Counted from the stretch's first letter, positions 5,111 to 25,155 are shown. The stretch: 64,000 bases of DNA from a virus (IMGVR_UViG_3300037067_012088:96001-160000); one strand, 5' to 3'. Notes: generated from the sequence alone by a model not told the origin. Program-made: numbers and translations.

Positions 5111-5525
5111 GTTCTCAAAAAGCCACCCCTTCCTACTAGGCTCTCCTCCCCACTCTCCGCTAAGCAGTCTCCCCTGCTCTCCCTAGGGTCCGTCCCTCAG
5201 TGTCAATGGGTAAGCTCCCTCAATTGTGACCTACGCCTTACTAGCGTAACTCGTTGCTACGCAACGCAAGCAGCGTATGTAAAATATCGCAGCCAAGGCC
5301 CTTCCCGTGCCCTAGGTGAGGCTCGGCTCTCTACCTATACCTTGGTATCGGATTCTGGGCTGCCCTGTATAGGGGAAAGGATAGGCACACAAAGCTTGTG
5401 TGTCACCTTGGCCCTAGCTGCCCTAGGTTGGGTTAGTTAGCCTTGCATATGGCTACTCTGTTGACTGGTATGCGGGACACTGGCGCGCAAGCGCCACAGT
5501 GCGCCCGACCGTAGGGAGTAAGCAC

Positions 5526-5554
5526 AAGAAAGCCCTAGGCTTGTGACCTAGGGC
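5526..5554 (-). terminator. rho-independent terminator
   Basis: GCCCTAGG-7-CCTAGGGC stem followed by TTTCTT on the minus strand. Confidence 0.7.
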
Positions 5555-5578
5555 AGAGGTAGCTGACTAGACTAGGTA

Positions 5579-5836
5579 TCAGGACATTAGGCGCACAGGG
5601 CCAGTGATACCCGCCGCATTGAACGCGCGCGCATAGTCCGCATGAAGGATACCGATGGAGTAGGCCAGCGAACGCAACGCGCACAGGATTGCGCGGTCTT
5701 GCTTGTCCGCATCCGCCCAGCTTGACAGTCTCATGGCATCAGCCATGCAGCTGCGGGCATTAGCTGTCTTGTCGCTGGGCAGGTGCTTACGCGCTAGGGC
5801 GAACACCTTGGCATGATCCGTCTTGTGAGTGGTCAT
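5579..5836 (-). CDS. hypothetical protein
   Basis: 85-aa ORF upstream of the terminator. Confidence 0.75.
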   Translation of the reverse strand: MTTHKTDHAKVFALARKHLPSDKTANARSCMADAMRLSSWADADKQDRAILCALRSLAYSIGILHADYARAFNAAGITGPVRLMS

Positions 5837-5871
5837 AGGATACAGGGATTGAGGGTTAGCGGGTAAGGGGG

Positions 5872-6006
5872 TTAGTCCGCCAGCTTGGCGACCGCCAACG
5901 CGTAGGCATAGCGCGCGGGCACCTGTGGGCCGGTGAAGATAGAGCGGTAATACCGATAGAGGGAACGGAGGCGATAAGCCCGGAGGGAGGTGAGGGAGGA
6001 GTTCAT
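5872..6006 (-). CDS. 44-aa basic peptide (paralog of 7475-7606)
   Basis: SLRAYRLRSLYRYY..VPARYAYALA. Confidence 0.55.
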   Translation of the reverse strand: MNSSLTSLRAYRLRSLYRYYRSIFTGPQVPARYAYALAVAKLAD

Positions 6007-6097
6007 GGGGTGAATAAGGGGCATCTAGGATTGAATAGCAAGCTGAGAGATGTAAAAGGACTGTAAAGAAATGCCGCAGGCATCGCTTGTCGAAGCC

Positions 6098-6142
6098 AAG
6101 AAAAGAGCCGCTCCGAAGAGCGGCCCAGAGAGCGGAGCGAAC
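6098..6142 (-). terminator. UUCG-loop terminator, copy 1
   Basis: GCCGCTC-TTCG-GAGCGGC-TCTTTTC; repeated at 7297-7341. Confidence 0.8.
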
Positions 6143-6153
6143 TGGCAGAAGGC

Positions 6154-7191
6154 TTACGAAAGCGCGAGAACCGTCTTGCCCCGGGCAAGTGTCGCCTCAA
6201 TCGCCTTGTCGTCGCGGATAAGGTCCCAAGCACCGGCCTTGGCGGTCTGCCCGCTGCCGAATTCGCTGGAAACGAACTGGCGCATACGGTCGTCACCCCC
6301 CGCGTTTTCATGGCTGTAATAGTCAGTCGCCGCACTGAACCAATCGGCGCGGTTTTGACCCTCGTTACCGGCGCCCCGGACAAACAGCTCGGTCAGGCGA
6401 TTAACCTGATTGGCGCGGCGCGTTGACATGGGCTCCTTAACCTCGGTGCGCGCGGTCAGGAAACCGGCAAAGAGGGCATTGGCGTCGTCAATCTTGATGG
6501 GTGCGGCAGCCAGCTTGTCCATTTCCAGCTTGAACAGGGCTTGCGCGCCGTGAAACCCGTCAACGATTTCGGGCACGTTTTCCAGCCGTTCCATGACGTT
6601 TTTGGTATGCTTCATGACGACGCGAACGGCCTTGGCGGACTCACTGGCGGACTGGGCAGCCTTCATGCCGGAGCGTTGGGATAAGGAAGACAGGTTCATG
6701 CCAAACGTGTTATTGCAGACTGTGCAAATGTTGCTCGTGTTGACCGCGAACGGCGCGGACATGTCATGTGAGCTGAGAAAATTAAGGTAGGGCACGAAGG
6801 ACCGCCCGGCAGCCTTAAACTCGGCCAGCTCCTCCAGCTTGACGGAAACGAAGATGCGGGAACGACCGCAAACGCTGCCAACACTGGCAACCTTGGCGCC
6901 CGGGATTTCGCGGATAGCCGTATTGATGATACGCAGGAAATCGGCGTTCGTGACCAGCCCGTAAGACTCGCAATGCACCGGGGCACCAATGCGGATTTTC
7001 GGGTCATCCGTGCAAGTGATACGGCAGTATTCCGAAGCGGAGCCGTCACCCTCCAGCATGGGAACCTTGGACACGTCCCATTGGGCGAGCCATGAAGACA
7101 GGAGTTCAATCAGGGGTTTGACGACGGTGAGCTTGTGCCAGCCCATTTCAATACCCTCTTGGCGGTCGATGTTGGTGATTTCGTGTGACAT
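6154..7191 (-). CDS. DUF932 / phage-plasmid-like protein (TIGR03299-like)
   Basis: MSHEI..GWHKL, SSHDMS..TVCNNT, KHTKN, ATDYYSH..SSEFGSG. Confidence 0.85.
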   Translation of the reverse strand: MSHEITNIDRQEGIEMGWHKLTVVKPLIELLSSWLAQWDVSKVPMLEGDGSASEYCRITCTDDPKIRIGAPVHCESYGLVTNADFLRIINTAIREIPGAKVASVGSVCGRSRIFVSVKLEELAEFKAAGRSFVPYLNFLSSHDMSAPFAVNTSNICTVCNNTFGMNLSSLSQRSGMKAAQSASESAKAVRVVMKHTKNVMERLENVPEIVDGFHGAQALFKLEMDKLAAAPIKIDDANALFAGFLTARTEVKEPMSTRRANQVNRLTELFVRGAGNEGQNRADWFSAATDYYSHENAGGDDRMRQFVSSEFGSGQTAKAGAWDLIRDDKAIEATLARGKTVLALS

Positions 7192-7296
7192 GAGATAAAG
7201 TCAGGTTGGGCGGAATTGCTTTGGCTGACTGGGGAAAGAATAGGCTAGATAGGATTAGAGTAAAGGAAATAAACTCGGTAGGATGAAGATATATGT

Positions 7297-7341
7297 AAAA
7301 AGAGCCGGTCCCGAAGGGCCGGCCCAGAGCGGAGCGGAACT
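7297..7341 (-). terminator. UUCG-loop terminator, copy 2
   Basis: GCCGGCCC-TTCG-GGACCGGC-TCTTTTT. Confidence 0.8.
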
Positions 7342-7356
7342 AAATTGGCCTAATCG

Positions 7357-7488
7357 TTAGCCAAAATAACCTAGCAAAACCGCCACCCCTAGCGCGACTA
7401 GGGCAAGCGGGATGGAAGCCAAGCAGAGGCAGACTAGGCACAGGGCGAATAGGTCTTTAGCGCGAACCATAAGGCTAGGCGGTCTCAT
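7357..7488 (-). CDS. small membrane peptide
   Basis: LFALCLVCLCLASIPLALVALGVAVLLGYFG. Confidence 0.5.
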   Translation of the reverse strand: MRPPSLMVRAKDLFALCLVCLCLASIPLALVALGVAVLLGYFG

Positions 7489-7606
7489 GGCGTGCGCGTG
7501 AATAGGCCACATAGGCGGGTAAGCCCTTGGCGCGGCCGGCCTTGTAGATGCAGCGGAGACGGTAGAACCGGAGACCGCGAGAAGAGAAGGAACGATGCAT
7601 AGTCAT
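7475..7606 (-). CDS. 43-aa basic peptide (paralog of 5872-6006)
   Basis: GLRFYRLRCIYKAGRAKGLPAYVAYSRAR. Confidence 0.55.
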   Translation of the reverse strand: MTMHRSFSSRGLRFYRLRCIYKAGRAKGLPAYVAYSRARHETA

Positions 7607-7610
7607 GGGA

Positions 7611-7805
7611 TTAGGGGGTGTGGGTGGCGCGAGCTTTGGCAGCGCAATTCTGGACGCTACTGATTGAGACCGTATGACCTTGGGCCATGGCTGACACTAT
7701 GCTGTCAAACTGCTTGGCAGCGTTGGCAAGGGCGGCCTCAAGCAGCTTTTCCCGTAGTGCGTAGGCGCCGAGTTCGGCTTTCATTTGCTGGATATTGGCG
7801 GTCAT
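7611..7805 (-). CDS. hypothetical protein
   Basis: MTANIQQMKAEL.., helical. Confidence 0.65.
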   Translation of the reverse strand: MTANIQQMKAELGAYALREKLLEAALANAAKQFDSIVSAMAQGHTVSISSVQNCAAKARATHTP

Positions 7806-7806
7806 G

Positions 7807-7959
7807 TTAGGCGCGGTTAAGGTGGAGTTTCGGGCAGGTGCGGCGCAAGACCCGGCGGGCTTGGTGCGGCGACATGTGGGCGGCGGCGAGACGTGAAAGC
7901 ACACGATTAACGCGGCCGGCAACATTGGCGATGAAGGACAGGCGGTCAGTTTTGGACAT
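7807..7959 (-). CDS. 50-aa basic peptide
   Basis: MSKTDRLSFIANVAGRVNRVL..; fills the gap between neighbours. Confidence 0.5.
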   Translation of the reverse strand: MSKTDRLSFIANVAGRVNRVLSRLAAAHMSPHQARRVLRRTCPKLHLNRA

Positions 7960-8001
7960 GGTGGGCGGGAGTTGAGGTTAGCGGGTTGGACGGGAAAAGG
8001 A

Positions 8002-8352
8002 TCACTCAAGCCCCCAGCACTCGCGGGAGGCAGGGGACAAGCCCCGGTGATAGGAGGGACGGGCACGCTCCCGGGCTTCGTCGTCTTCAATGGCGGCGAG
8101 CGCGGCCTTGCTCAGGGTGGCGGGGACAATATCGAATTGGGACAGGGGCACCCAATGCGGCGCACAGGGGGAGCGCTCAAGCCGGACGAACACCTCGCCG
8201 GCTTTCGGCCCGCTCAGGACGGTATAGAGCCCGTCATAGGTGCAATCGTTGCCGTTGCTAAGGGAGTGAAGGGTGCGGCCCTTGAGAGAGCCGAATTTGT
8301 GTTCGTCGTGCTGAACAGCGGGAGCGTATGAGTAATAGGTGGGAGAATTCAT
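8002..8352 (-). CDS. hypothetical protein
   Basis: 116-aa ORF with upstream TAGATT -10 and palindrome. Confidence 0.75.
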   Translation of the reverse strand: MNSPTYYSYAPAVQHDEHKFGSLKGRTLHSLSNGNDCTYDGLYTVLSGPKAGEVFVRLERSPCAPHWVPLSQFDIVPATLSKAALAAIEDDEARERARPSYHRGLSPASRECWGLE

Positions 8353-8408
8353 GGGAAGAGTTGAGTTACTTTGAACACCGCCAATCTACAGCATGGCGCG
8401 AGTCTTGT

Positions 8409-8840
8409 CTGTAGGGTCGATCCCCTATTTTCGCTAGGGTGCTTCTCTCCCCTTCGCGCCGCTCCGGGGTGCGGCTCTGCCGCAGATTCTTAGGTAAACC
8501 CCTCTAGCTGCGGTGTATCAGTTACCTGTTAGACTTCTTTCCACTAGGCGCGCACTCCTTAACTGGGTTTATCCCGGTCCCTCGTGTAACCCTTACTGAG
8601 TCAGTAGACTAACAGCGCACCGTGAATCGGTTCACCATTCAACTCTCAGGCCACGAGATTAAACGGCATGTCTAGACAGGACTGAAACAGGTCAAACCGC
8701 GCACCGGGTTTAGGGTGTAACGTAGCTCTTTGAGGTAGTCCATTCGTGACTATCACCCATGAGACCGCAAGACAGGCTAAGGCCGCTTGCGGCTTTGTCG
8801 CGTCTGTTTCGCGGGCCAAACGGCAGTCAGTCCCCTACAG
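8409..8840 (-). ncRNA. candidate ~430-nt structured ncRNA
   Basis: ORF-free; promoter TTGCGT-16-TAACCT (~8846-8873); 5'/3' 8-bp closing helix plus many nested stems. Confidence 0.55.
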
Positions 8841-9034
8841 CTAAAAGGTTAGTATCCCGTAGGCAAGACGCAAGCTTAATCGGTGTAAAGAAATCGTAAA
8901 GGATTCGTAAACGTAAATGTAAAGACCGCCGTGGCCGGAACCATGGGTAAGGAGATAGCGGGAAACGAGTAGGCTTGCATAAGAGCCTAGTCCAAGGGCA
9001 CTTAGGTAAACGGCCTTTGCGCGCAATCGGGGCG

Positions 9035-9515
9035 CCTAGTCAGTCTTTACGTTTACATTCAGCTCTAGGGAAACGACCCTAGCAGATTTACGCGAGCTTG
9101 GCATCCATTCGCGCGGTTGAGAATAGGTCTCATTATCACTCGCGAACGCGCCAAAAACGGCGCCTTTTCCCAGCACTAACATATTGAGGGAGTATAGGCA
9201 AAGAGTCAACACCTTTCCTCTAGGGTCCATTACCTAGGCGCGCCTAGGGTGTTTTGCCTACCTGACACTAGGGGATCAAAGATGCCCGTTTCGCGCGAAT
9301 TTTGCGCACTTGGCACGATTCCTTTTCGCTTATACGGGCATATCTAGCAAGGGTCTAGGCCACCATAGCCGGCCGCCCAGCCTTTCGCGTAACACGTTGC
9401 ACGGTAACGGAATACCCGTTTGCGGGTTTTGCGGTCGCGGGCCACCTAGTCAATCTTGTCGTTTACAATCCAGCATAGGGGAAACACCCTAGAGGAAACT
9501 GGCAGAGCTGGCATG
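9035..9515 (+). repeat. ~70-bp imperfect direct repeat (9035-9105 and 9445-9515)
   Basis: cctagtcaRtctt..cgtttacaWtc..TAGGG-N6-CCCTAg..gagct(t)ggcat in both copies. Confidence 0.75.
9181..9209 (-). promoter_or_regulatory. sigma70-like promoter
   Basis: TTGACT-17-CAATAT just downstream of three tandem TAGGG sites. Confidence 0.6.
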
Positions 9516-9660
9516 AGGAGTGCGCGGCAAAGTGGAGCCAAAGTAGTTAGGTGCCTAATCATATTGGTGCGGGCAGGTGCGTAGGCGAGTGGTGAACTGT
9601 ATGAGTGGAGGTAGGACGGTAGTTAGGAGCCTAACTATTTAGTAGCGTCTCACTCATAGA

Positions 9661-9810
9661 CCACCCCTTTCCCCTCCTCCCTCACCCCTCTTTTTTACAC
9701 TCTCCCTTTATCTCTCTCCCTTGTATCCCCTTACGTTATCCTTACCCGGTTCTCTCTGTTCTCTCCTCCCTACTCCTTTCCCCTATCTGTTCTCCCTTTA
9801 CTCTGTTCTC
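9661..9810. repeat. 150-bp polypyrimidine/polypurine tract
   Basis: Plus strand almost entirely C/T. Confidence 0.85.
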
Positions 9811-9960
9811 TAGGTGTCTAGGTAACGGGCTGGCAGGCCAGCCGGCCACCTAAGCCCCTAATCCCCCTATTTAGGTCACTGATTAGGTTAGGCTATCTCA
9901 AACCCTAGCGCTGCCCTGTTTGGCGCGGTTTACCCTGTTACTTAGACCAAAGGAAACGAG

Positions 9961-10173
9961 CTAGCCGGCCTTCCGTATCTTGGCCGCGCATTTCGGGCAC
10001 TCCGGCACCGTCTCACTTGCTAGCGATTCATCTAGACAGAGAAAATCAACCCGGCACCCACAAAGGGTCTTGCCAGTCTCTAGGTTGACCGCGTGATCCT
10101 GAAAGGCCACCTTTCCGCGCGCTTCCATATACTCGGCGCCCTTGCCTCCCATGGGATAGGTTTTCCATTTCAT
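9961..10173 (-). CDS. small Cys/His Zn-binding protein
   Basis: H..TLCG..CPKC; leaderless promoter TTGACA-16-TAGGCT. Confidence 0.75.
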   Translation of the reverse strand: MKWKTYPMGGKGAEYMEARGKVAFQDHAVNLETGKTLCGCRVDFLCLDESLASETVPECPKCAAKIRKAG

Positions 10174-10212
10174 GCGCGAAAGCCTACCCTTTGCGCCGTG
10201 CCTGTCAAGCGT

Positions 10213-10593
10213 TTAGCTCCGATAAGACATGACGCAAGAGGCATCACAAAAGGCGCGTCCGCTGGGGACGTATTCGCCTACGCTCCGGCCGCACCATTTG
10301 CACTCACTGGGGCGGGCACGCTCACAAAGCTTGCGTTGGGTCCGGTCAAACGTGGCCGGGGTATCCTGTTTGACCACCAAACCGCCCCGGCGGTTAATCT
10401 CGTTTTGACAGTAGCCAGAAAAGGCGCGCAACACGTCATAGCCGTTTCCGCCATCCCATGCGCTCGTAAAGGTCTCCCGGTAATGCGTGCTAAGGGGTTG
10501 CGAGCGAACTACGCGCAAGACTTTAACCACTTGACCGGCCGAAATGACGCGGCCAGAGGCAAGACGATGAAAGGGGAGGATGTTGGGGAGCAT
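10213..10593 (-). CDS. protein with C-terminal Zn finger
   Basis: CKWCG..FCDASC; own promoter TTGACA-16-TAGGCT. Confidence 0.75.
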   Translation of the reverse strand: MLPNILPFHRLASGRVISAGQVVKVLRVVRSQPLSTHYRETFTSAWDGGNGYDVLRAFSGYCQNEINRRGGLVVKQDTPATFDRTQRKLCERARPSECKWCGRSVGEYVPSGRAFCDASCVMSYRS

Positions 10594-10649
10594 GGTAGGG
10601 AGGTTAGTTTGATTGAACAGTGCCAAGCCTAACCGGCTCGCAAGTCATG

Positions 10650-10973
10650 TCAAGCCCCTTTCGGCCTGAATCGCTCTGCCCATTCCGCCAAATGCGGCAG
10701 CTCGGGCGCAATCTCTGCCAGCCGTGACAGATAGTAAAACGGTTCATCGGAATAGGTATCTATTCCCCCTATCCACAGATGCGAGTTGCCCGCGTGCTTT
10801 AACCAGCGCTCCGTGACCTTGGCGCGCGGGTTATGGGTCCGGTCATATAAGCGCCAATCCTGCCGGGGCATTTCGACTATTGCGAGCCGTTCCGAAACGT
10901 GCCGGGTTTGGCCTACGCGCAAGCCTAGCGTCTTGGCTAGTGCGGCGTTAAATGGGGCGGTTCTCGTTTCCAT
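10650..10973 (-). CDS. hypothetical protein
   Basis: Leaderless: TTGACA-16-TATGCT-7-ATG. Confidence 0.75.
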   Translation of the reverse strand: METRTAPFNAALAKTLGLRVGQTRHVSERLAIVEMPRQDWRLYDRTHNPRAKVTERWLKHAGNSHLWIGGIDTYSDEPFYYLSRLAEIAPELPHLAEWAERFRPKGA

Positions 10974-11004
10974 GTCGCCAAGCATACCGGGGCGCCTAGC
11001 CGTG

Positions 11005-11211
11005 TCAAGCGCTCTTTTCAACCGCCGCCATTGCGGTTTCAGCCGTCGTAAACTCGCCTGATTGAACCCCTCCCGGAGAACGATGCACAAGCCAACAGTG
11101 CGCGACGGCAGACCGGAAGACTATTGCACCCAAAGCCTGATTCGCGTAGTGATAGGGGAACTCCGGACGATCCTTGTCCCTGATTCGTTTCCAGCCTTTG
11201 CGGGTTGTCAT
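11005..11211 (-). CDS. hypothetical protein
   Basis: ORF track; its stop lies in the next -35. Confidence 0.7.
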   Translation of the reverse strand: MTTRKGWKRIRDKDRPEFPYHYANQALGAIVFRSAVAHCWLVHRSPGGVQSGEFTTAETAMAAVEKSA

Positions 11212-11214
11212 GGG

Positions 11215-11394
11215 TTAAGCCTTCTTCGCCTGCTCGTTAAAGTAGTCCAGCGCGGCGCGCTTGGCGTCCCGCATGTTCCGGCATCCCCCGATTGAGTATT
11301 GCCCCAGATTCAGGCCATAGCAGGTGAAGACATAATAGCCGTTATCATTGCGGCCATGGGGAACGATGTCGGAGGGTTTGACGGTGGTTTTCAT
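11215..11394 (-). CDS. hypothetical protein
   Basis: TTGACC-16-CATACT promoter. Confidence 0.7.
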   Translation of the reverse strand: MKTTVKPSDIVPHGRNDNGYYVFTCYGLNLGQYSIGGCRNMRDAKRAALDYFNEQAKKA

Positions 11395-11427
11395 CTGGGG
11401 CACAGTATGCAGAGAAGACGGGTTAGG

Positions 11428-11796
11428 TCAAGTCAGCAAATCACGTAAACGCGCAAGGTGTGGAAACTGGGTTTTGGGTTTCCGCTCACGGGATTTGCGT
11501 TTTGTCTTGACAGGCTCAGAGGCGTGCTTGACCGCTTCTACCGTATAATCCCCGTAATACTGGCTGTCTGGCTCATTTGGTTTGACCACCAACCCTTTCG
11601 CGCAAGCCGTCACGCTGTCCAGTCCAGTAAACTCCACCGCCTTGCGGTCACTGATTCGGTAGCCGTTTCCGCGCCAACGCTCTAGCACGTCATGTGCGTA
11701 ATGGGAATGAGCGCCTTTCACCCATTCGATTTCTTCGGCCTGTAGGTCGAAGCCTAGAGCCTCAAGCAGATTAGATACCTTTTCGCGGGGCGTCAT
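11428..11796 (-). CDS. hypothetical protein
   Basis: ATGA overlap. Confidence 0.75.
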   Translation of the reverse strand: MTPREKVSNLLEALGFDLQAEEIEWVKGAHSHYAHDVLERWRGNGYRISDRKAVEFTGLDSVTACAKGLVVKPNEPDSQYYGDYTVEAVKHASEPVKTKRKSRERKPKTQFPHLARLRDLLT

Positions 11797-12005
11797 GCGT
11801 CTTCACTCTCTAACACGGCAGCACGTTGCCGGGCGCGGTCAATCCGTTCGTTAAGCTCAATGAAGGTCTCCGAATTGTCCCATACCTTGACCTCGCGGAG
11901 CTTAGAGCTGCCCTGTGCGGCGCGGATTAGGCGCTGGCCTATCGCGTTTAGCTCGCGGCTTGACAGGGTGCCGGTGACTTGGACCGTGAAGCGTGCGCGG
12001 TTCAT
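11793..12005 (-). CDS. hypothetical protein
   Basis: ATGA overlap. Confidence 0.7.
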   Translation of the reverse strand: MNRARFTVQVTGTLSSRELNAIGQRLIRAAQGSSKLREVKVWDNSETFIELNERIDRARQRAAVLESEDA

Positions 12006-12415
12006 AGCGAACCCTTGGGTTCAAAAGTGAAGGCTGGCCGGTGGCGAGCGCGCGCCGTGTGAGCCTCTAGCATTTCGGCCCGTTCGCTCTCTGTGTGTTC
12101 GTCGGCGCGTTCGCGTTCTAGCTGCGCCTGCTCGGCTAGATCGGCAAGCCGGTTCTGCTCCTTTACATACGCGGCATGTTGGGGATGTTCGGCGTCCCAC
12201 TCGCAAAGGGCATCCGCGCCGGTCTTGTCACCGTCCGCAAAGACTGCCGCCTTCATGGTCTGAAAGGCCGCGTGTGTGGTTTCGCTGTGTTGGGCGAAGG
12301 TGTCCGAAAGCAGATAGCGAGCGCGCTCCTTGGCGTTGCGGATGCCTTCGCAATCGGCGCAACGGTCGATTTCCGTGCCGTCCCGAGCGTAGAGAATGGC
12401 GGTAAAGTATTTCAT
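12002..12415 (-). CDS. hypothetical protein
   Basis: TTGACA-18-CATACT promoter. Confidence 0.75.
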   Translation of the reverse strand: MKYFTAILYARDGTEIDRCADCEGIRNAKERARYLLSDTFAQHSETTHAAFQTMKAAVFADGDKTGADALCEWDAEHPQHAAYVKEQNRLADLAEQAQLERERADEHTESERAEMLEAHTARARHRPAFTFEPKGSL

Positions 12416-12449
12416 CGGGGCACAGTATGGCAGAGAGGGCGAAGGCTTG

Positions 12450-12914: not shown

Positions 12915-12966
12915 CAATGGTGCGGCGGGTGATTCAGTCCGCGCGCGGGTGAGTTGGTCCTTTGGG

Positions 12967-17328: not shown

Positions 17329-17332
17329 GGGA

Positions 17333-17899: not shown

Positions 17900-18462
17900 A
17901 GAGGTGGAGTGGCCGGGTCAATTTCGTCCCCGACATTCCGGCGAATCACAGTCCAAACGGGTTGCCCCGCTCTTAGCTCCGCGCCGCACTCCGTAAGATG
18001 ATAAAGAAAGGGTGACCCGAATCGCACGGGTCTCACTGTTGATCTAGTTTCGGCCGCTGTTTGGTAGTGTCACACCTACTGGGCAGCCTATCACCGACTA
18101 ACGGGCAGTGCGCCGGACTCAGTGGTAACAATTCGACTGGTCGCGAAACCGGGTCTTTATCACCCGGCAAGACTTGGAAAGAGTTCCCCACCAGCTTCCT
18201 TTTGTCCGTTCTGCTAGCCACGCAGGGCGCGGGCGTTGTTACTAGGACGTGATTAGGCTGGCGGGGTGTTCGATGGATAGGGAAGGACGGATAGCGGCCC
18301 GGCCTGTCGTGACTTCTCACCTCACCCGCTATAAGGCGAGGTCAGGGCTTTACCCCTCGAAAGAGTCGGCGTGAGCCGGCACTAGAAGCTTGTCACCATA
18401 CGGTCAGAGGAGGGAGAGGGCTTTTGACCCAGTATCCAGCCGATGACCTATCCAAAGAACAA
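17900..18462 (-). ncRNA. candidate ~560-nt multi-domain ncRNA with tRNA-like modules
   Basis: Promoter TCGACC-17-CATTCT; boxA-like TTGTTCTTTGG; four end-paired domains; no credible ORF. Confidence 0.6.
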
Positions 18463-18553
18463 AGAGGAGAATGATAGGGAGTGCGAGAAAGGTCGAGATA
18501 AATCGTGCGATTTGATACCCTAGCGCGCGACTAGGTAGTCAACCCTATTGACA

Positions 18554-18709
18554 CTAGCTCTTGCGTTGCTCAAGGGGCATGCCCTTGGCTTGGTCGATGG
18601 CCTTGCGAACCGCCTCAACAGCGGCGCTCGAAGACATGAATTGACGAGTTTCGGTATCGGTCAATTTGATCGTGACCGCGCCGGTTTGGGTGGAGTGAGT
18701 GATTTGCAT
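18554..18709 (-). CDS. 51-aa hypothetical protein
   Basis: MQITHSTQTGAVTIKLTD.. Confidence 0.6.
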   Translation of the reverse strand: MQITHSTQTGAVTIKLTDTETRQFMSSSAAVEAVRKAIDQAKGMPLEQRKS

Positions 18710-18718
18710 GGGGAGTCC

Positions 18719-19099
18719 TTAGAAGCTGTGCGCCTCAAGCTCGGCGAGTTCGTTTTCCAGCCTGTGAATCTCGGCTTCGACATTCTCCTGCTTGTCGAGC
18801 GCGGCAAGCTCGGTCTCCCTTTCCTCGATAAACGCCTGTTTGGCGCGGTCGAGTTCGTCGGTGTCGTAATAGGAGCCGTCTATTTCGGTAAACCCATCGG
18901 AACTGTCGGCCACGCCACAGCGGAACGCGGTCGGGTCAAGCTCCTCAACGATTCGGGAGGCCGAAAACGTGAGGTTGCCCACCGAAATCTCGCCGCAAAC
19001 CTCGTCAAGCGTATTGCGGTAACGCTGTTCGAGGTCAACGGGCTTGCACTCGGCGGCGATATGGGCGATAAGGGCGGTGATGATGGGTGATTGATTCAT
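18719..19099 (-). CDS. acidic phage protein
   Basis: LDEVCGEISVGNLTFSASRIVEELDPTAFRCG; D/E-rich. Confidence 0.8.
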   Translation of the reverse strand: MNQSPIITALIAHIAAECKPVDLEQRYRNTLDEVCGEISVGNLTFSASRIVEELDPTAFRCGVADSSDGFTEIDGSYYDTDELDRAKQAFIEERETELAALDKQENVEAEIHRLENELAELEAHSF

Positions 19100-19168
19100 G
19101 GCGGTAAGAGTGACAGGTGCGGGTGATAAAGCGAGAGGAAAGTGACGCGAAGCGTCAAAGTTGATACC

Positions 19169-19465
19169 CTAGCGCGATTGGGGGGAATCCCCTAGCAGCC
19201 GGCGTGCCTCGGCATACGTCTCGTTATCCTCGGGCTTGAGTCGGCTTACCGTGAGGAAGACGCGCATGGACTCGGCACAGTCACCTAGGGACGCGCGCAA
19301 AGCGGACCACTCATTAGCCGCGCGCGCAAGGTAGTTCGCTACCTCAGTAGGCATTTGATGCGAGCCGATCCGGTTGCGGTGCGTCGTGCCGGGTTCCTGA
19401 TAGGTCAGGAGAGAATGGCCCGGCTGGCTGGTCTCGGCGACGGTGAAGAGAGGAGGGTTAAGCAT
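19169..19465 (-). CDS. hypothetical protein
   Basis: ORF track. Confidence 0.7.
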   Translation of the reverse strand: MLNPPLFTVAETSQPGHSLLTYQEPGTTHRNRIGSHQMPTEVANYLARAANEWSALRASLGDCAESMRVFLTVSRLKPEDNETYAEARRLLGDSPQSR

Positions 19466-19474
19466 GGGGGCTAG

Positions 19475-19918
19475 CTAGACAGGCTGATTGAACCGATGGG
19501 CATACTCAACCGCGAACGCGGCGGTGCGCTCCGGTGAATAGGCGCTCCCGTCATTCAGCGCCTCCAAGTCATCGCCCAACCGGAACAGGAGATTGTCCAG
19601 TCCGCGCACGACAAACTGACTCTTGCGATGGTGAGACTGGTTGATGTCGCCAAATGAGTCGGCGAAGCACGCGGGTGAATCGGAACGGATATTCCAGCAG
19701 GCCACATGCACGTCGGGCTGGCAGCTCTTCCCGTTGAAGTCAACCCATATAACTGCGCCGCCCTTGTGGGCGATTTCAAGGCGCAGCTCGTGCGGCCCGG
19801 CGAACTCGTTGTCGTCCGTGACGGTTGCCCCAAGGGATTCGCACAGCGCGCGGACCTGTCGGATCATTTCGATGCGGTCAGCCTTGCGGCGTTCGGTGAG
19901 GGGAGCGATTTGATTCAT
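19475..19918 (-). CDS. hypothetical protein
   Basis: TTGCAT-17-CATACT-7-ATG. Confidence 0.75.
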   Translation of the reverse strand: MNQIAPLTERRKADRIEMIRQVRALCESLGATVTDDNEFAGPHELRLEIAHKGGAVIWVDFNGKSCQPDVHVACWNIRSDSPACFADSFGDINQSHHRKSQFVVRGLDNLLFRLGDDLEALNDGSAYSPERTAAFAVEYAHRFNQPV

Positions 19919-19986
19919 GGGATGGAGTATGTGAGGGATTCGCGCCGGATGCAAGCGCGGCGACTACTTATATTGACCTAGGGAGA

Positions 19987-20190
19987 TCACCCCACCCGCG
20001 AGATTCGGAACGCACCTGCCGCGCCGCCGCCCAACCTGTAGCCGCTCCCCATGTCAAGGGCCGCGCGCATATCGGAGAGAGTGGCCGGATCAAAGCCGTC
20101 GTTGGCTTCGAGCATTTTGTCCCACGTGGTCAGGGTGGGTTCACCTCGCGGGTTGCCGTAGGTGTCGAGGGGTTGGATGGAAATAGTCAT
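19987..20190 (-). CDS. small protein, paralog of 21725-22000
   Basis: IQPLD..G.P..WD..L.AN.GF..GGGAAGAFR. Confidence 0.8.
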   Translation of the reverse strand: MTISIQPLDTYGNPRGEPTLTTWDKMLEANDGFDPATLSDMRAALDMGSGYRLGGGAAGAFRISRVG

Positions 20191-20195
20191 GGGGA

Positions 20196-20699
20196 TCAGA
20201 GAGCCAGCGCGGCGTTCGCGCCCTTGACGGAAGCGTCGTCTTTGCCGCCGAAACGCTCGCGGTCGTCGTCGGGCATGTCGCTGATGTCGTCGAGCAGATT
20301 GGAGAGAGCAGCGCGAAGTGCCGCGATCTTGTCTGCGTCGCTGACCTCCTTAACCTCGATGCCCTGTTCTTTGGCGGCGGCGAGGATGAGCTTATCGAGC
20401 ACGGCGTCTACTTTTCCCTCGGCAATGATGGCGTCGAAATCGAGATTGCAGCCGCGCCCGTATGTGCGTCGGGGCAGCTTGCCCACTTTGAACAGCGCGC
20501 GGAACTCGGCGCCCCGGTTGCACAGTCCATTATTGAACAGGTCGTAGTAGCAGTTCCGCGCGCGGCGGTAACGGTCAAGAGCCTTGTTCGCGCCCTTGGC
20601 CTCTGGGCACTCGCCAGACGCGGGAATCAGTTTGTCCATCTTGTCGGCAACAGCTTTGTAGCGGCCTTGGCTATTCCAGTAGGAGGTTGAGAGGTTCAT
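20196..20699 (-). CDS. hypothetical phage protein
   Basis: YWNSQGRY..LIPASG..YYDLFNNGLCN. Confidence 0.8.
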   Translation of the reverse strand: MNLSTSYWNSQGRYKAVADKMDKLIPASGECPEAKGANKALDRYRRARNCYYDLFNNGLCNRGAEFRALFKVGKLPRRTYGRGCNLDFDAIIAEGKVDAVLDKLILAAAKEQGIEVKEVSDADKIAALRAALSNLLDDISDMPDDDRERFGGKDDASVKGANAALAL

Positions 20700-20763
20700 G
20701 ACAGCAATCTGACAGGGTTTCAGTGATAAGGGAAGCGAAATCGCGCGGGATAGGGAATGGACC

Positions 20764-21210
20764 CTAAGCCCTCATAGGGTCCGCAATCCCGTCATACAGG
20801 ATGCCAAGGTCCATGTTCTGCCGCTCGCCTGTGGCATAGCAGTCGTCAATGGCTCCGTCATATTCGGTTTGGCGCCAACCGCGTTTGGCCGCGTAGACCT
20901 CAAGGATCAACCACGCTTCATCGAAGGTGTAGGGTAAGCAACCGGAGCACGGGAGGGTCAGCGCCTCAACCCAGCGGCCCTTGACTTTCTTGCGCTCGAT
21001 GGGGATGACGACCGTGAAATGGCGGCGCTGATTGACCTGTCCCGCGTCAATGTCGGCGGCGCGCTGGATAAGGGCAGCCTTACGATCCTCGGCGCGGAAC
21101 GAGTCGGCGGGAATCACCTTGGCGATATATCTCATTTCGTTGGCCACCTGAGCGGGAGTCATGTGACCGGAAGAGATGGCGGGGTTGCCGCGATAGTAGG
21201 GGGCGTTCAT
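20764..21210 (-). CDS. hypothetical protein
   Basis: ATGA overlap. Confidence 0.75.
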   Translation of the reverse strand: MNAPYYRGNPAISSGHMTPAQVANEMRYIAKVIPADSFRAEDRKAALIQRAADIDAGQVNQRRHFTVVIPIERKKVKGRWVEALTLPCSGCLPYTFDEAWLILEVYAAKRGWRQTEYDGAIDDCYATGERQNMDLGILYDGIADPMRA

Positions 21211-21452
21211 GATTGGTAAAGCGAAGAGAGGAGTTGACCGTCACGAATCGCGCGTAACTCACCGCGCAAGTCACCACGACGAATCTTGAGGGTCATAGGC
21301 TTGTCGAAATAGGTCGTCGCCAGAATGAGGGTAACGCGATTGGCCTTGGATACCGTCCCGCTGACTGGCGAAAACGCTCGGTCGCCCTGAGCACGGATGA
21401 GGTCGCCCGCCTGAATGGTTTCGAGAGTGATTAGGCCGGTGGGTTGTTTCAT
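21207..21452 (-). CDS. small beta-barrel-like protein
   Basis: IQAGDLIR..GTVSKANRVTL. Confidence 0.7.
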   Translation of the reverse strand: MKQPTGLITLETIQAGDLIRAQGDRAFSPVSGTVSKANRVTLILATTYFDKPMTLKIRRGDLRGELRAIRDGQLLSSLYQS

Positions 21453-21530
21453 GGGACGGATTAGACCACAGGTTGTGCGGTTTGTCGAATGGTGAGATGC
21501 CTCAATCGTGATAGGGTATAGACCCCAGAT

Positions 21531-21728
21531 TCAAGCAACCCACTTGAATCCTAGCTTGCCCGCGCACTTCTTGACCTGCTTCATAGCACGGCGCGCAAGG
21601 GGCTTGGCTTCATTCTCGGGGTTAATCTGCTCGAATATGAAACGCAGTGAGTCAAGATCTTCGCTCGTCACGCGAAGAGAGAAGACGACACGCTTACCGT
21701 TTGGGATATAGGGATCGCCGGGATTCAT
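21531..21728 (-). CDS. hypothetical protein
   Basis: ATGA overlap. Confidence 0.65.
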   Translation of the reverse strand: MNPGDPYIPNGKRVVFSLRVTSEDLDSLRFIFEQINPENEAKPLARRAMKQVKKCAGKLGFKWVA

Positions 21729-22000
21729 GCGGGAATCCGCGTCAATCGAAATGCCCCCGCCGCGCCGCCGCCAATCACATACTCGCGCCCTAAACGAAGG
21801 GCGGTCGTCATCTCACCTAGCGTGAAGAGGTCGTGCTTGAAGCCGTTGTTGGCCCGCAGAAAAGCGTCCCAGTTCTCGGTGAAGGCCTTGTCGGTGGGAT
21901 GGCCGAGGTGGTCTAAGGGTTGGATTGTCACTTGCGGTGTTGCTTGCGGGCTTACGCCCACGGCGCAACGATGTCCTGCGGACATGGGGAGAGGTTTCAT
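21725..22000 (-). CDS. small protein, paralog of 19987-20190
   Basis: IQPLDHLGHP..GGGAAGAFR. Confidence 0.75.
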   Translation of the reverse strand: MKPLPMSAGHRCAVGVSPQATPQVTIQPLDHLGHPTDKAFTENWDAFLRANNGFKHDLFTLGEMTTALRLGREYVIGGGAAGAFRLTRIPA

Positions 22001-22004
22001 GTGG

Positions 22005-22301
22005 TCAAGCCTTGTTGAGTGCCCGGCGCGCGGCGTTGGCCCAGTCATCACAGAAGCGGATGGCTCCGATAGCGTCGGGTATGAGTTTGAGCACATGCTT
22101 AAAGCTCGCTGAATCGGCAACCTCGTTCGGCGAGAGCCCGCTTGCGATGCGTGCTGCCTTGTATTCGGCATAGGTGAGCGACCACACGTCGCCGCGCTTG
22201 AAGCGGGCGTGCATGATGCCGTAGGCAATGGCTTCGTATTCGCTCTTGTCGCAGACGCTTTCCCAAGGAAAGGTGAGGAAAGTTGATGGAGGAAGGTTCA
22301 T
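22005..22301 (-). CDS. hypothetical protein
   Basis: ORF track. Confidence 0.75.
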   Translation of the reverse strand: MNLPPSTFLTFPWESVCDKSEYEAIAYGIMHARFKRGDVWSLTYAEYKAARIASGLSPNEVADSASFKHVLKLIPDAIGAIRFCDDWANAARRALNKA

Positions 22302-22305
22302 GGGG

Positions 22306-22560
22306 TTAGATAGCTTGGGTGTTCATGCAGGCGGCATGGGCGCGGATAACGATTTGGCAAGCATGGTCACCGCCTTGGAAAGCGTCATAGATGCGACTGA
22401 TGCCGTTGACCGCTTCGGCGCACTCATGACGTGTATCTCGGTCTTGGGCGCGCAGTTCATATTCGACAATCTCGGCGAGTGCGCCAAGTTGGCCTGCGCT
22501 CAGATATGGGCTGACGCGGGTAAGGATGCGGGCGACACGGGCTTCGGTGGTAGGTTTCAT
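22306..22560 (-). CDS. hypothetical protein
   Basis: TTGAGT-17-TATAGT promoter. Confidence 0.75.
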   Translation of the reverse strand: MKPTTEARVARILTRVSPYLSAGQLGALAEIVEYELRAQDRDTRHECAEAVNGISRIYDAFQGGDHACQIVIRAHAACMNTQAI

Positions 22561-22610
22561 GTGAGGATACTATACCAGATTCGGAGGCTTGACTCAATAG
22601 GGGGTGCCCC

Positions 22611-22985
22611 TCATTCGGAGTGAGGTGAATTGCCTACTGCCGCCAAAGCCTCCTTCAGCGTCATGTTGGGACCATCGCCCCGCGAGAACGTGACAGGCTT
22701 GTCCGCCGACTTGAACATGGGCACGTTAGCCGTGTAGCCGCCCAGATAGAGCTTGAGCCACTGCGTTGCGCGAGTAGGGGACATGCGCCAGCCCGGTTGA
22801 TGCCCGCGAGCCCATCGGCCATTCAAGCCTTCCGCGAGCCAGCTTGCACGGTCCTTCCAGCCGTCCGGATTCTCGCGCTCAAGGGCCAGCACCATGCCCT
22901 TACCATATCGCGCGAGCGAACAGGAATAGCGCACCCCATCATGAGTGCCGGAATAGGAGAGGGGGATAAGGTCGGGGTTTCTCAT
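22611..22985 (-). CDS. hypothetical protein
   Basis: ATGA overlap. Confidence 0.75.
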   Translation of the reverse strand: MRNPDLIPLSYSGTHDGVRYSCSLARYGKGMVLALERENPDGWKDRASWLAEGLNGRWARGHQPGWRMSPTRATQWLKLYLGGYTANVPMFKSADKPVTFSRGDGPNMTLKEALAAVGNSPHSE

Positions 22986-23512
22986 GTGGTCTTCCCCGTC
23001 ATCATGACGCCGAAAGCGCTCCCGTTGCCGCCGTTGACATGCTCCCGGCGATTGGAGTCAAGGGGACGCAAGACAATCGGCATCCCGCCCTCGCGTATCT
23101 CAATCTCCATCAGCCCACCGCCGAGAGCGCGCATCAGGGTCTCTAGATTCTTGGCGCTGACGACGATCTTAATCGGCGTGCCATCGCGCGGAATCACTTG
23201 CTCCACATTGGGTGCGGCGGGCTGCTTGTCGGGGCGCGGAAAGGAGGCTCCATTGGCGCACACATAACGGTCGCCGCAATCGACTTGTAACGGCGCACTG
23301 GCGGGAGTGGCCTTTCGCGCGTTAGACATGGCTTCAAGCGAGATGATACCGTCGCGGTCATCGGTGCCGCGCTCACAGGGGAACACGCCCATGATTTGAC
23401 CGTTTAGCGCGATGACGGTTGAGCCGGACAAGAAGGGCGCTTCCCACTGGGGGCGGCGCGCATCAGGGTCGGCAACGAGCAGTTCAGGCTTGAATGATTT
23501 GGAGAGCTTCAT
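22982..23512 (-). CDS. DNA polymerase III beta-clamp-like protein (truncated)
   Basis: D.RRP..VIALNGQIM, P.VEQVIP, VSAKNL..L..PIVL..FGVMM resemble the DnaN middle/C-terminal domains. Confidence 0.55.
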   Translation of the reverse strand: MKLSKSFKPELLVADPDARRPQWEAPFLSGSTVIALNGQIMGVFPCERGTDDRDGIISLEAMSNARKATPASAPLQVDCGDRYVCANGASFPRPDKQPAAPNVEQVIPRDGTPIKIVVSAKNLETLMRALGGGLMEIEIREGGMPIVLRPLDSNRREHVNGGNGSAFGVMMTGKTT

Positions 23513-23542
23513 CGGATTACTCTAATGGGTTGATTGCCGTTG

Positions 23543-23857
23543 TCACGAAGAATCGGGTCGCCAAAGCACGAAATGCTTGGTCACGAAACGCGAGAGCTTG
23601 GTCTGAATCTGCTTAACGGTGAAGCCCTCTACGATGACAAGAAACTGAAGGGTATAGTGACTGTCCCACTCGACAATCTCAAGACCCGTCTCCTTCTTCG
23701 CGCGGTTCAGGAATTCGTCATAGCCCGGTCCCGTCCAATAGGCTTGCACCATGTCGTTAGGTTCGTGTTCGGCGGGATCGAACATGGGAGATGACGGTTT
23801 GAGACTAAGGGTGCTGTCTCCTACGTCAAACCATGCTTTCCAGAGTGAGGCTTTCAT
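23543..23857 (-). CDS. hypothetical protein
   Basis: ORF track; ATG 23857. Confidence 0.7.
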   Translation of the reverse strand: MKASLWKAWFDVGDSTLSLKPSSPMFDPAEHEPNDMVQAYWTGPGYDEFLNRAKKETGLEIVEWDSHYTLQFLVIVEGFTVKQIQTKLSRFVTKHFVLWRPDSS

Positions 23858-23955
23858 GTCAGGCAAGAAAGCACCCACGCGCCCAAGACGGCGAGCGTCA
23901 CGGCGAGCAGGAGGAGGTTAGGGTCACGGGTTTTCACTGCCCATATCCTACACCC

Positions 23956-24180
23956 TTAACTCGCCCTGTCAACACCAATTCGCTTCCGCCATCTCTTTTC
24001 TTGCGCCGCAATCACCTTCTCCATCTTGAGTATCGCTGCCTTGAACACGGGTAAAGCTGCCTCTTCCGGCGTCATATCGGGTATCTCAACCGGCGCGGGG
24101 AAGGTTAACGGAAACTGAGGGGAATCAGTGAGAGGAGAGCACACGCGGGGATTGTAGCGAATGGGTTGGTCCTCGTTCAC
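23956..24180 (-). CDS. hypothetical protein
   Basis: GTGA overlap. Confidence 0.6.
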   Translation of the reverse strand: MNEDQPIRYNPRVCSPLTDSPQFPLTFPAPVEIPDMTPEEAALPVFKAAILKMEKVIAAQEKRWRKRIGVDRAS

Positions 24181-24440
24181 GCGCGATGCTTGACAATCCA
24201 GCGCCGGTAGTTCGCCTCATAGACAGAAGGCTCGCCCTCGGTCTTGGCGAACGGCACGCCGTTCAAGTGAGCAAGGGCCGTGTCGAAGAAGTCGAGAGAG
24301 GCTTGACCCACAGAGAACGTGTCATGAGGGAATAGGGCGCGCAGCTCGCGGTAGCGCAGATCGAGGAAGAGGTCGAGCGCGATTGAGGGGTTATCGCGGA
24401 GCTTCTGAGAGCAGTTGATGAGATAGGCGGCGAGAGTCAT
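24177..24440 (-). CDS. hypothetical protein
   Basis: MTLAAYLINC.. Confidence 0.7.
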   Translation of the reverse strand: MTLAAYLINCSQKLRDNPSIALDLFLDLRYRELRALFPHDTFSVGQASLDFFDTALAHLNGVPFAKTEGEPSVYEANYRRWIVKHRA

Positions 24441-24441
24441 G

Positions 24442-24768
24442 TTAATCGGGCTGATTCGCCGGAACACCCTCAACGAACGTCGCTTCGAGATGGTCGAGCA
24501 GCGCGGCCAGCGTGTCGTGCTGATAGATAGCCGGCCACCACTTGTTCTCAATCGCAACGTCGGACCTGTTGAACGTCCACTTACCATTGACATCCTGCAT
24601 CAGCGGATGCGAGTCTTGGATATCCCACGTGTGCCCGAAGTGGCGTCGTTCGGCTCCCGGAGCCGGACAATACCAGATGTCGAGGATGCGGTCTTTCTCG
24701 CCTCGGATGTTGAGGCGCGCCGGGTCTTTCGAGGCCACGAAACGAGCAGTTGAGGGGTAGGTGTTCAT
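24442..24768 (-). CDS. hypothetical protein
   Basis: ATGA overlap. Confidence 0.7.
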   Translation of the reverse strand: MNTYPSTARFVASKDPARLNIRGEKDRILDIWYCPAPGAERRHFGHTWDIQDSHPLMQDVNGKWTFNRSDVAIENKWWPAIYQHDTLAALLDHLEATFVEGVPANQPD

Positions 24769-25124
24769 GGGATAGTCGGCTTCACCAGTTCCCACACCGC
24801 GCGCAGGGTGGTCAGGGAATGGGTATTACGGTAGCTGTCGAACGCGCGTTTGATGTCGCGATACAGTGTCTCGGCAGCCTTCTCATCTTGCCACTCTTGC
24901 TCGGAGGCGTAGAGCTGACGATTGACGCAGAACTCGGTCTTCTCCCCCCACGTATCGAGATGGAATTGAATCTCATGATGTGGAGCCATCTCAGTTGAGC
25001 ACGAGAAATACTTGCGCCCCACTGAGCGCACGATGATCGGGGTAGCCTTTTGGGCGACGTTTCGCGCCGCGTTGCCCACGTTGACGGAATAGAGGGTTTG
25101 GCCGATGACGGGAGTGGGTTTCAT
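24765..25124 (-). CDS. hypothetical phage beta-barrel protein
   Basis: VIGQTLY..VRSVGRKYF; CAAG-class promoter 25131-25159. Confidence 0.8.
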   Translation of the reverse strand: MKPTPVIGQTLYSVNVGNAARNVAQKATPIIVRSVGRKYFSCSTEMAPHHEIQFHLDTWGEKTEFCVNRQLYASEQEWQDEKAAETLYRDIKRAFDSYRNTHSLTTLRAVWELVKPTIP

Positions 25125-25155
25125 GCGCATATCCTGTAGGGCTTGTCCTCTAGGG

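Follow-up and report, generated by a model that had tools for sequence, protein, structure and literature searches.

A probable activator-dependent phage promoter class built on a palindromic box and borrowing a host response regulator

At the class II promoters of LuxR and TraR, the lux box or tra box is centered near −42.5, and side-by-side dimers such as those at lambda OR1-OR2 match a spacing of 23 to 25 bp between sites. Short recurrent elements are also known from between phage genes. In phage L5, a repressor of the phage itself binds stoperators, asymmetric 13-mers that follow the direction of transcription and are distributed genome-wide, while T4-type phages reportedly carry promoter-early stem-loop (PeSL) cassettes, said to have been described by Arbiol et al. 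in 2010. Here, a palindromic box, TAGGG-N6-CCCTA, was analyzed in a 64,000-bp stretch of DNA (the window), bases 96001 to 160000 of one 191,387-bp IMG/VR virus record (IMGVR_UViG_3300037067_012088; this phage is designated G000). Coordinates are those of the window unless given as genome positions. Judged from sequence comparisons, the box probably marks an activator- or operator-dependent phage promoter class that borrows a host response regulator. Literature searches did not find a description of the motif.

Eight exact copies of the box are located at 8412 to 20766, against 0.01 expected from shuffled sequences, and a scan of the whole genome found no further exact copy and no spacing other than N6. 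Allowing up to one mismatch gave 17 sites, all at 8412 to 25152, against 0.96 expected. A preliminary description of the window had listed the same eight copies, as well as about 17 near-matches where nine were found at one mismatch; an even spread across the full genome, which it had named as evidence against a regulatory site, was not seen, as the sites are confined to one block. A position weight matrix (PWM) built from 15 sites gave 17 sites scoring at least 14.7, all at 8.4 to 22.6 kb; one PWM outlier outside the block lies at genome position 37188. A relaxed rule suggested by a complete 205-kb relative, G004, namely T[AG][AG]GG-N6-CC[CT][CT]A (TRRGG-N6-CCYYA), matched 17 genome sites, 14 of them at 5184 to 22613, compared with two for the reversed control, and N6 was again the sole enriched spacing. 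A site at 25137 was left out of the count, being weak (PWM score below 10) and located within a promoter spacer. The consensus is asymmetric, TAGGGT-S-N-W-T-Y-CCCTA (with W at position 9), and each of the 15 sites had TAGGGT on one side or both. Four of the 15 oriented sites face the opposite way, and the palindromic sites are not all oriented with transcription. Same-strand distances from TAGGG to TAGGG pile up at 23 to 25 bp (eight pairs) and 47 to 48 bp (two pairs), with almost nothing else below 60 bp. This agrees with the pairs and triplets reported at first, although the spacing corresponds to about 2.2 to 2.4 helical turns rather than the two initially proposed.

The relationship of the box to promoters was clearest in G004, where 31 relaxed boxes were identified, 29 of them at 17 to 56 kb (control, 2). 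Directly after the box, at offset 0, 25 of these 29 were followed by a −35-position hexamer, 17 to 18 bp, and TAnnnT, against a background of 4%, and 19 of the 25 box promoters had an ATG 5 to 10 nt past the TAnnnT. This fixed offset indicates that the box is an integral upstream promoter module covering approximately −52 to −37. In a second phage, L024, which shares only a ProQ-like gene with G000 (52 to 56% identity) and was the closest relative reached through that gene, two overlapping boxes were found; the first holds the TGA of the upstream gene in its loop, and TAGACG-17-TATAGT-7-ATG directly follows the second. Measured from the start of the box to that of the −10, the distance is 39 in L024 and 38 to 40 at the window promoters 21512, 16866, 16354, and 8412. 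In a promoter screen of G000 and G004, a TTGAC −35 occurred at one of 15 box promoters and at 39 of 98 predicted box-less ones (Fisher p = 0.018), and such weak −35 sequences favor dependence on an activator. Box-free neighboring promoters with consensus TTGAC −35 sequences lie at 12453, 11431, 11008, and 23972, and at 121124 in genome coordinates. The preliminary description had placed the sites, as operator or activator elements, between a stop codon and the next −35, which was refined here to a fixed −35 position in G004, L024, and part of the window. Its estimate of about 50 single-promoter genes under common control was too high, as about 12 to 14 promoters or transcription units carry a box and many of their neighbors have box-free consensus TTGAC promoters. 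Taken at the DNA level, the box is very probably a promoter or operator element, and the factor bound probably activates these promoters.

Genes of this region, like those of the genome as a whole, lack a Shine-Dalgarno sequence (any GGAG-like word was found at 27 of 105 starts) and begin in the context CCC-ATG-A(A), with C preferred at −1 to −3 and A at +4. As many −10-like hexamers lie 6 to 9 nt before the ATG, leaderless mRNAs are indicated. A sigma-70 consensus scan of the block gave nine matches against 6.6 expected and was uninformative alone. The possibility that the loop of the box is itself a −35, paired with a separate −10 located 17 bp away, was rejected on hand reading, as no consistent −10 could be found.

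The same box was identified in other phages using an IMG/VR pattern scan for box-plus-half-box tandems, which returned 28 loci. More than a dozen of these have two to eight boxes each with the same consensus (TAGGGTGTTTACCCTA, TAGGGTGAATACCCTA, TAGGGTTGATTCCCTA); arrays of 23 to 25 bp are frequent and the GC content of box-bearing contigs ranges from 0.31 to 0.55. Four of the phages (G004, G005, G006, and G008) share genes with G000, including the structural module in G004 and G006, whereas G007 and related loci represent an unrelated 37-kb phage group with the same box arrays. The two groups share almost no genes and none is universal. Other distant relatives found through the ProQ-like gene (L008 to L017, L025 to L066, and G001 to G003) had neither the box nor an analogous palindrome, and their apparent repeats were dismissed as coding tandem repeats or chance.

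The box was also found in bacterial genomes. When one genome per prokaryote species was scanned with the tandem pattern, 107 matches were obtained, and 12 of the 80 listed were from Verrucomicrobiota, mostly Opitutales (binomial p = 5e−6 on an assumed share of 3% of species). Two Opitutales metagenome-assembled genomes (MAGs) carry two to three consensus boxes before a giant gene, and the Opitutales family of genome G009 gave 68 forward matches, 30 of them outside two repeat-rich genomes, compared with 10 for the control. Five Opitutales genomes have the box as an invariant block ahead of an orthologous sulfatase gene, at a distance of about 11 nt. A NarL-type response-regulator gene, often as part of a tandem gene pair, is preceded at 65 to 180 nt by a relaxed box in 12 of 23 Opitutales genomes, and no other block is conserved there across genomes of very different GC content (Poisson p ∼1e−21). 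The nearest solved relatives of this regulator are VraR, NarL, and DevR. The preliminary description had suggested a search for the motif upstream of host genes, and the sulfatase and regulator genes provide such cases. A CCCATG start context without a Shine-Dalgarno sequence is common to the phage genes and the box-adjoining Opitutales genes. The sulfatase and regulator footprints, together with the failure to find a phage DNA-binding domain (see below), make a host factor the more economical choice, with the putatively autoregulated NarL-type regulator as the leading candidate. That the factor is host- rather than phage-encoded is thus somewhat favored; that it is specifically a NarL-type regulator is a tentative assignment, with the odds slightly against it.

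The two repeat-rich Opitutales genomes, G182 and G222, contain 14 and 24 copies, respectively, of TAGGGTTGAAACCCTA or TAGGGTTTTAACCCTA. In G222:C164, arrays occur at 2583, 2832, 3082, and 3331 with a period of about 250 bp, and by appearance represent a repeat family built on the box.

The boxes of the window and the promoters assigned to them are as follows, from the highest coordinates downward (intervals and spacers in the direction of transcription).

22598-22613, minus strand: box of the TGAGG/TAGGG variant with the TGA stop of the upstream gene inside; abuts −35 TTGAGT (22592-22597), then a 17-bp spacer, −10 TATAGT (22569-22574), 8 nt, and ATG 22558-22560.
21512-21527, minus strand: strong distal box; the proximal box 21489-21504 is degenerate, with just its left half (TGAGG) retained, and abuts −35 TCGACA (21483-21488), then 17 bp, −10 TCTAAT (21460-21465), and, 7 nt on, a leaderless ATG 21450-21452.
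20751-20766, minus strand: exact box in which gene 20764-21210 ends (TAG stop), with no recognizable −35; likely −10 CAGATT (20706-20711), 6 nt, ATG 20697-20699.
19979-19994, minus strand: box whose loop contains the TGA stop of gene 19987-20190; −35 TTGCAT (19949-19954) 24 nt downstream, 17 bp, −10 CATACT (19926-19931), 7 nt, ATG 19916-19918.
19156-19194, minus strand: tandem pair of distal box 19179-19194 and proximal half-box 19156-19171, starts 23 bp apart, upstream of gene 18719-19099; promoter assignment ambiguous.
18507-18547, minus strand: tandem pair of distal box 18532-18547 and proximal half-box 18507-18522; 10 nt, −35 TCGACC (18491-18496), 17 bp, −10 CATTCT (18468-18473).
16866-16881, minus strand: exact distal box with the TAG stop of gene 16879-17328 in its arm; the degenerate proximal box 16843-16858, 23 bp from it and retaining just a TGAGG half, abuts −35 TCGACA (16837-16842), then 16 bp, −10 TAACCT (16815-16820), 6 nt, ATG 16806-16808.
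16354-16369, minus strand: exact distal box whose loop contains the TGA stop of gene 16362-16808; degenerate proximal box 16331-16346 and an extended −10, TGCTATACT, with TATACT at 16301-16306.
15529-15544 and 15505-15520, minus strand: exact box, in which gene 15542-15865 ends (TAG stop), and half-box; the next promoter that can be recognized, TTGCAT (15441-15446)-16-CATTCT (15419-15424), lies about 60 nt on, and the pair is not promoter-adjacent.
14090-14105 and 14065-14080, minus strand: tandem pair; 11 nt to −35 TCGACA (14048-14053), 16-bp spacer, −10 CATGCT (14026-14031), then a GTTCAA-type leader.
13772-13787, minus strand: exact box holding the TAG stop of gene 13785-14030; 15 nt, −35 TCGCAA (13751-13756), 16 bp, −10 CATTCT (13729-13734), and a GTTCAAGTAA leader.
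12829-12844 and 12854-12869, minus strand: box and weak distal box, downstream of a terminator-like hairpin (12888-12911); 10 nt, −35-position hexamer CTCGGC (12813-12818), 17 bp, −10 TAGAGT (12790-12795).
9476-9491, no strand assigned: exact box in the second copy (9441-9530) of a duplicated module.
9221-9284, no strand assigned: triple array (9221/9245/9269) with a 24-bp period in an ORF-poor region (ORF, open reading frame); on the minus strand, 11 nt beyond box 9221, TTGACT (9204-9209)-17-CAATAT (9181-9186).
9066-9081, no strand assigned: exact box inside the first copy (9031-9120) of the duplicated module, which is about 90 bp; no clear promoter.
8412-8427, minus strand: exact box abutting −35 CAGACA (8406-8411), with a half-box (8435-8450) 23 bp away; 17 bp, −10 TAGATT (8383-8388), GTTCAAAGTAA leader, ATG 8350-8352.
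5184-5199 and 5207-5222, no strand assigned: TGAGG-type pair, full under the relaxed rule and half, respectively, where plus- and minus-strand genes converge; no promoter seen.

The overlap of boxes with stop codons, reported in the preliminary description, was borne out by the ends of the minus-strand ORFs at 13785, 15542, 16362, 16879, 19987, 20764, and 22611, each of which terminates within a box, the stop being either a TAG in one of the arms or a TGA in the loop. A conserved transcript start, (G)TGTTCAA(A)GTAA.CCAAC, is common to four box promoters directly past the −10 (minus strand; 13700-13728, 13990-14025, 12760-12789, and 8355-8382), and the promoter-leader cassettes of the block are paralogous to each other. 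This shared start could be a common leader element, either boxA-like or a translation or stability signal. A related sequence, TTGTTCTTTGG, lies at 18452-18462, where the promoter of the 18507 pair may drive an ORF-poor stretch and thereby a candidate noncoding RNA. Between 8430 and 9960, about 1.5 kb without a credible ORF contains seven boxes and GTAAA-type repeats (8884-8922 and 9044-9060); in the duplicated module of this region, the box is followed by TGGCAT-N-TGCGCGG. No match to Rfam was identified here or elsewhere at 5000 to 26000, and a tRNA search of the box region found nothing. Derivation of the box from a tRNA T arm was rejected, as its loop is 6 rather than 7 nt and not T-loop-like.

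The genome carrying these sites has a GC content of 55% and an estimated completeness of 92% (CheckV), and its minus strand holds nearly all genes from about 5.5 to 64 kb of the window, including the box block. Most of its proteins are ORFans without a family or Pfam match. The portal protein had no match among 50,697 phage records, and a near-identity search of the phage collection was also without a match. Genes flanking the boxes are hypervariable while box and promoter are conserved, and just two block genes are common to G000 and G004. Long polypyrimidine (C/T-rich) tracts on the plus strand at 9655-9800 and 5140-5183 flank the box-rich noncoding region and the zone of gene convergence. 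Words containing CTAG are rare genome-wide and enriched within the block.

Several other explanations of the box were weighed, beginning with the nature of the molecule recognized. The exact copies can fold as hairpins of 5 to 6 bp (−5.1 to −6.6 kcal/mol) and sit at gene ends, and a ProQ-C-like protein is encoded nearby (24765-25211), so that the box might instead act as RNA at the 3′ terminus of the transcript from the upstream gene, serving as a terminator, a processing or stability signal, or the target of an RNA-binding protein. However, the half-site variants TAGGG, TGAGG, TGGGG, and TAAGG combine freely, with TGAGG preferred in the promoter-distal half and TAGGG in the promoter-proximal half, and 11 of 15 promoter-anchored pairs are noncomplementary. 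Arm sequence is kept without the compensatory changes expected of a structured RNA, no U-tract or T-run of an intrinsic (Rho-independent) terminator follows the boxes, and half-boxes unable to pair recur at the array period of 23 to 25 bp. In addition, position is fixed to the downstream −35 rather than to the upstream stop, and boxes occur upstream of genes in host genomes. As the half-sites vary independently, a hairpin is very improbable, and a protein dimer reading two DNA half-sites, with cooperative neighbors, is favored; this independence and the conservation in host genomes also lend weight to the original proposal of an operator or activator site for a host or phage factor. If DNA is the target, the bound factor could still repress or insulate, as in silencing or at stoperator- and KorB-like sites, shutting the block off or blocking read-through from upstream. 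KorB operators directly upstream of a −35 do repress, the boxes overlap upstream stop codons, the host sulfatase box lies about 11 nt from the start codon, and one G007 box encloses a TATAAT just upstream of a gene. Set against this are the weaker −35 hexamers of box promoters compared with box-less ones, the 25 of 29 G004 cases in which the box ends exactly at the −35 and spares the −35, the −10, and the start, and the mixed orientation of the palindromic sites relative to transcription. A repressive role was therefore judged unlikely, if far less so than the hairpin. A third explanation treats the boxes as boundaries of mobile, PeSL-like promoter cassettes, or, in promoter-free arrays, as sites for replication, partition, packaging, or titration of a factor. 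This would suit the hypervariable genes around a conserved box and promoter (with two block genes shared with G004), the paralogous promoter-leader cassettes, and the promoter-poor arrays at 8.4 to 9.5 kb, in G007, and beside the TTTGCTGAT repeats of L077, L081, and L098. It leaves unexplained the half-site that is invariant across GC contents of 0.31 to 0.55 and the footprints in host genomes; moreover, it is compatible with an activating operator and would be an added consequence rather than an alternative. As an explanation in its own right, it is quite improbable, ranking between the hairpin and repression.

The source of the factor is a separate matter. A phage-encoded regulator unrecognized by profile libraries, for example an early protein serving as a middle-gene activator, could bind the box, in which case the host sites would serve a host protein of similar specificity or be prophage remnants. 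The confinement of sites to one phage block and the abundance of ORFans without a Pfam match are in keeping with this, as is the frequency with which phages encode their own middle activators (Mu Mor, P2 Ogr, and phi29 p4). Conversely, the same box occurs in two phage groups with almost no genes in common, none of them universal, and it forms a conserved footprint in Opitutales, ahead of chromosomal genes for a sulfatase and a response regulator. No HTH_3, Sigma70_r4, or GerE domain above the cutoff was identified when about 220 phage ORFs were scanned against Pfam and family searches were run in six frames. Genes shared in part by the box phages are a C5 methylase (G000 and G007), DUF932 (G000, G004, and L088), and one small family (G007 and G006). 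The C5 cytosine methyltransferase, also found by these scans, is present as pieces at genome positions 29.8 to 31.7 kb that are close to the G007 methylase (20839-22050; E value, 1e−57), but it is not in all box phages and was rejected as the common factor. The DUF932 protein (6154-7191, minus strand, at the downstream end of the block) was likewise discarded as the binder, being absent from the complete G007; its homologues adjoin box clusters in G004 and L088 and are present in G006 and G008, and a single-protein search of viral contigs with it returned nothing. The scans further detected a CheY-like, receiver-only protein of 141 amino acids without an output domain (L001:8875-9300, genome coordinates 8875-9300, minus strand). 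It was not accepted as a copy of the receiver of the host regulator, given only a generic 24% identity, though it might feed the same phosphorelay. Overall, a phage-encoded factor is unlikely, yet it is the least unlikely of the four alternatives considered.

Several observations weigh against an activating host operator as the whole explanation. In the window itself, a TAnnnT promoter abuts just two of 14 full boxes (22598 and 8412), promoter geometry is looser than in G004 and partly assigned by hand, and no promoter is evident at boxes 9066, 9476, 5184, and 15529. G007 carries a promoter-poor 700-bp box array, and this, with the promoter-free arrays at 8.4 to 9.5 kb, hints at a second role in titration, replication, or packaging. 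In hosts, perfect 6-4-6 palindromes are not enriched across the class Verrucomicrobiae (24 against 17 for the control); the sulfatase box, about 11 nt from the start codon, is in a repressor-like position, so that the factor may activate in one context and repress in another. A box before the regulator gene would place that gene in the regulon and is not proof of binding by the encoded protein. The host assignment is indirect, and phage contigs can be present in MAG bins.

The arrays of the smaller phage group have features of their own. In the 36.6-kb phage G007 (L099), the terminase operon is separated from the rightward genes by a gene-free region of 1.5 kb (14440-15940), in which boxes and half-boxes are densely arranged in repeat units of about 40 nt, with the TATAAT-enclosing box upstream of the first leftward gene. 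The related contigs L077, L081, L085, and L098 have a box pair, three TTTGCTGAT repeats, and an A/T-rich stretch, resembling an origin or control region. A terminase-small or pac-site reading of the G007 array was set aside because it leaves the promoter-linked boxes unexplained. The deposited, cultured-type phage C75C1 (L227; accession number OQ984151.1), with a TerL 72% identical to that of G007, had no TAGGGT box in the 13.7-kb stretch examined; its divergent control region (3300-5100) has repeated GGGGTACCCC-type palindromes that may be a related operator with another spacing.

On balance, the explanation that fits best, by a modest measure, is that the box is the operator of a dimeric host factor that activates a class of phage promoters. 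The 16-bp pseudo-palindrome (TAGGGT-N4-ACCCTA) would be the double-stranded DNA site of a dimeric transcription factor and the upstream module of a separate promoter class in an uncultured phage family with genomes of about 200 kb. A typical promoter would comprise the box, a weak −35 of the TAGACT/TCGACA type, 17 to 18 bp, TAnnnT, 6 to 9 nt, and ATG, and the box, at about −52 to −37, would be centered near −44, the position of a class II activator. The window appears to use a variant in which a full box takes the proximal slot at some promoters only, while most would have either a strong box 23 to 25 bp upstream plus a degenerate half-box at the −35 or a box 10 to 15 bp from the −35; a strong distal and degenerate proximal site would fit cooperative loading of adjacent dimers. 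The factor would most likely come from an Opitutales (Verrucomicrobiota) host, with a NarL/VraR/DevR-type response regulator whose own gene has the box upstream as the best candidate, and the phage would thereby link its fast-evolving small genes, in about a dozen transcription units, to two-component signaling of the host. In its fullest form, for which our confidence is low, both the ∼200-kb family and the unrelated ∼37-kb group might have built a promoter class on an Opitutales NarL/VraR-type operator, so that the accessory block is on only when the pathway is active.

If correct, this would provide a promoter grammar for phages without a cultured relative, with two promoter classes and leaderless mRNAs lacking Shine-Dalgarno sequences, and a sequence-based link to Opitutales hosts within Verrucomicrobiota, a phylum for which very few phages are known. 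It would also offer an example, open to direct testing, of a hypervariable phage gene block placed under a two-component regulator of the host, and it would reveal a previously undescribed Opitutales regulon of a sulfatase, response regulators, and a giant surface-type gene.

The box differs in instructive ways from the systems it resembles. Like L5 stoperators, it occurs in many copies in short intergenic gaps, often touching stop codons, but the sites are palindromic, restricted to one block, and located upstream of −35 sequences, and no helix-turn-helix (HTH) repressor was found in the phage scans. As in T4 PeSL cassettes, small, hypervariable ORFan genes have individual promoters and are separated by recurring copies of a short palindrome with a promoter; here, however, the palindrome has a fixed sequence, a fixed −35 distance, and conservation in hosts, which point to a protein operator rather than a generic stem-loop. 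The comparison with CRP and FNR originally drawn holds for the 5-6-5 inverted repeat and for the class II-like placement, with the center 2 to 3 bp upstream of −41.5. It does not extend to the half-sites, TAGGG(T), TGAGG, and TGGGG rather than TGTGA/TCACA (CRP) or TTGAT/ATCAA (FNR), or to the sole candidate protein found, which is of the NarL/LuxR family, no search aimed at CRP/FNR proteins having been made. Lambda CI at OR1-OR2-OR3 and PRM offers another parallel, with pseudo-palindromic operators of 16 to 17 bp placed 23 to 24 bp center to center, a strong site that helps to load a weaker neighbor, and a proximal dimer near −42 that activates. Unlike lambda, there is no immunity switch here, about a dozen promoters are dispersed, the phage scans detected neither a CI-like nor an HTH_3 protein, and the factor is probably host-encoded. 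The resemblance to LuxR/TraR and NarL/DevR (DosR) systems lies in a palindrome, the kind of site bound by a GerE-type HTH dimer, that directly precedes or overlaps a weak −35; in the DevR box, too, arms rich in GGG/CCC flank a short A/T core. In sequence, TAGGGT-N4-ACCCTA matches neither the NarL heptamer pair (TACYYMT) nor the lux or DevR box, and it differs further from the LuxR and NarL systems in serving phage promoters, in forming arrays with a 23- to 25-bp period, and in that binding is a prediction here. As for NarL/LuxR operators, an inverted repeat occupies the activator position and the site lies upstream of the regulator's own gene across species, the candidate host protein being of the NarL/VraR/DevR family with the box before its gene.

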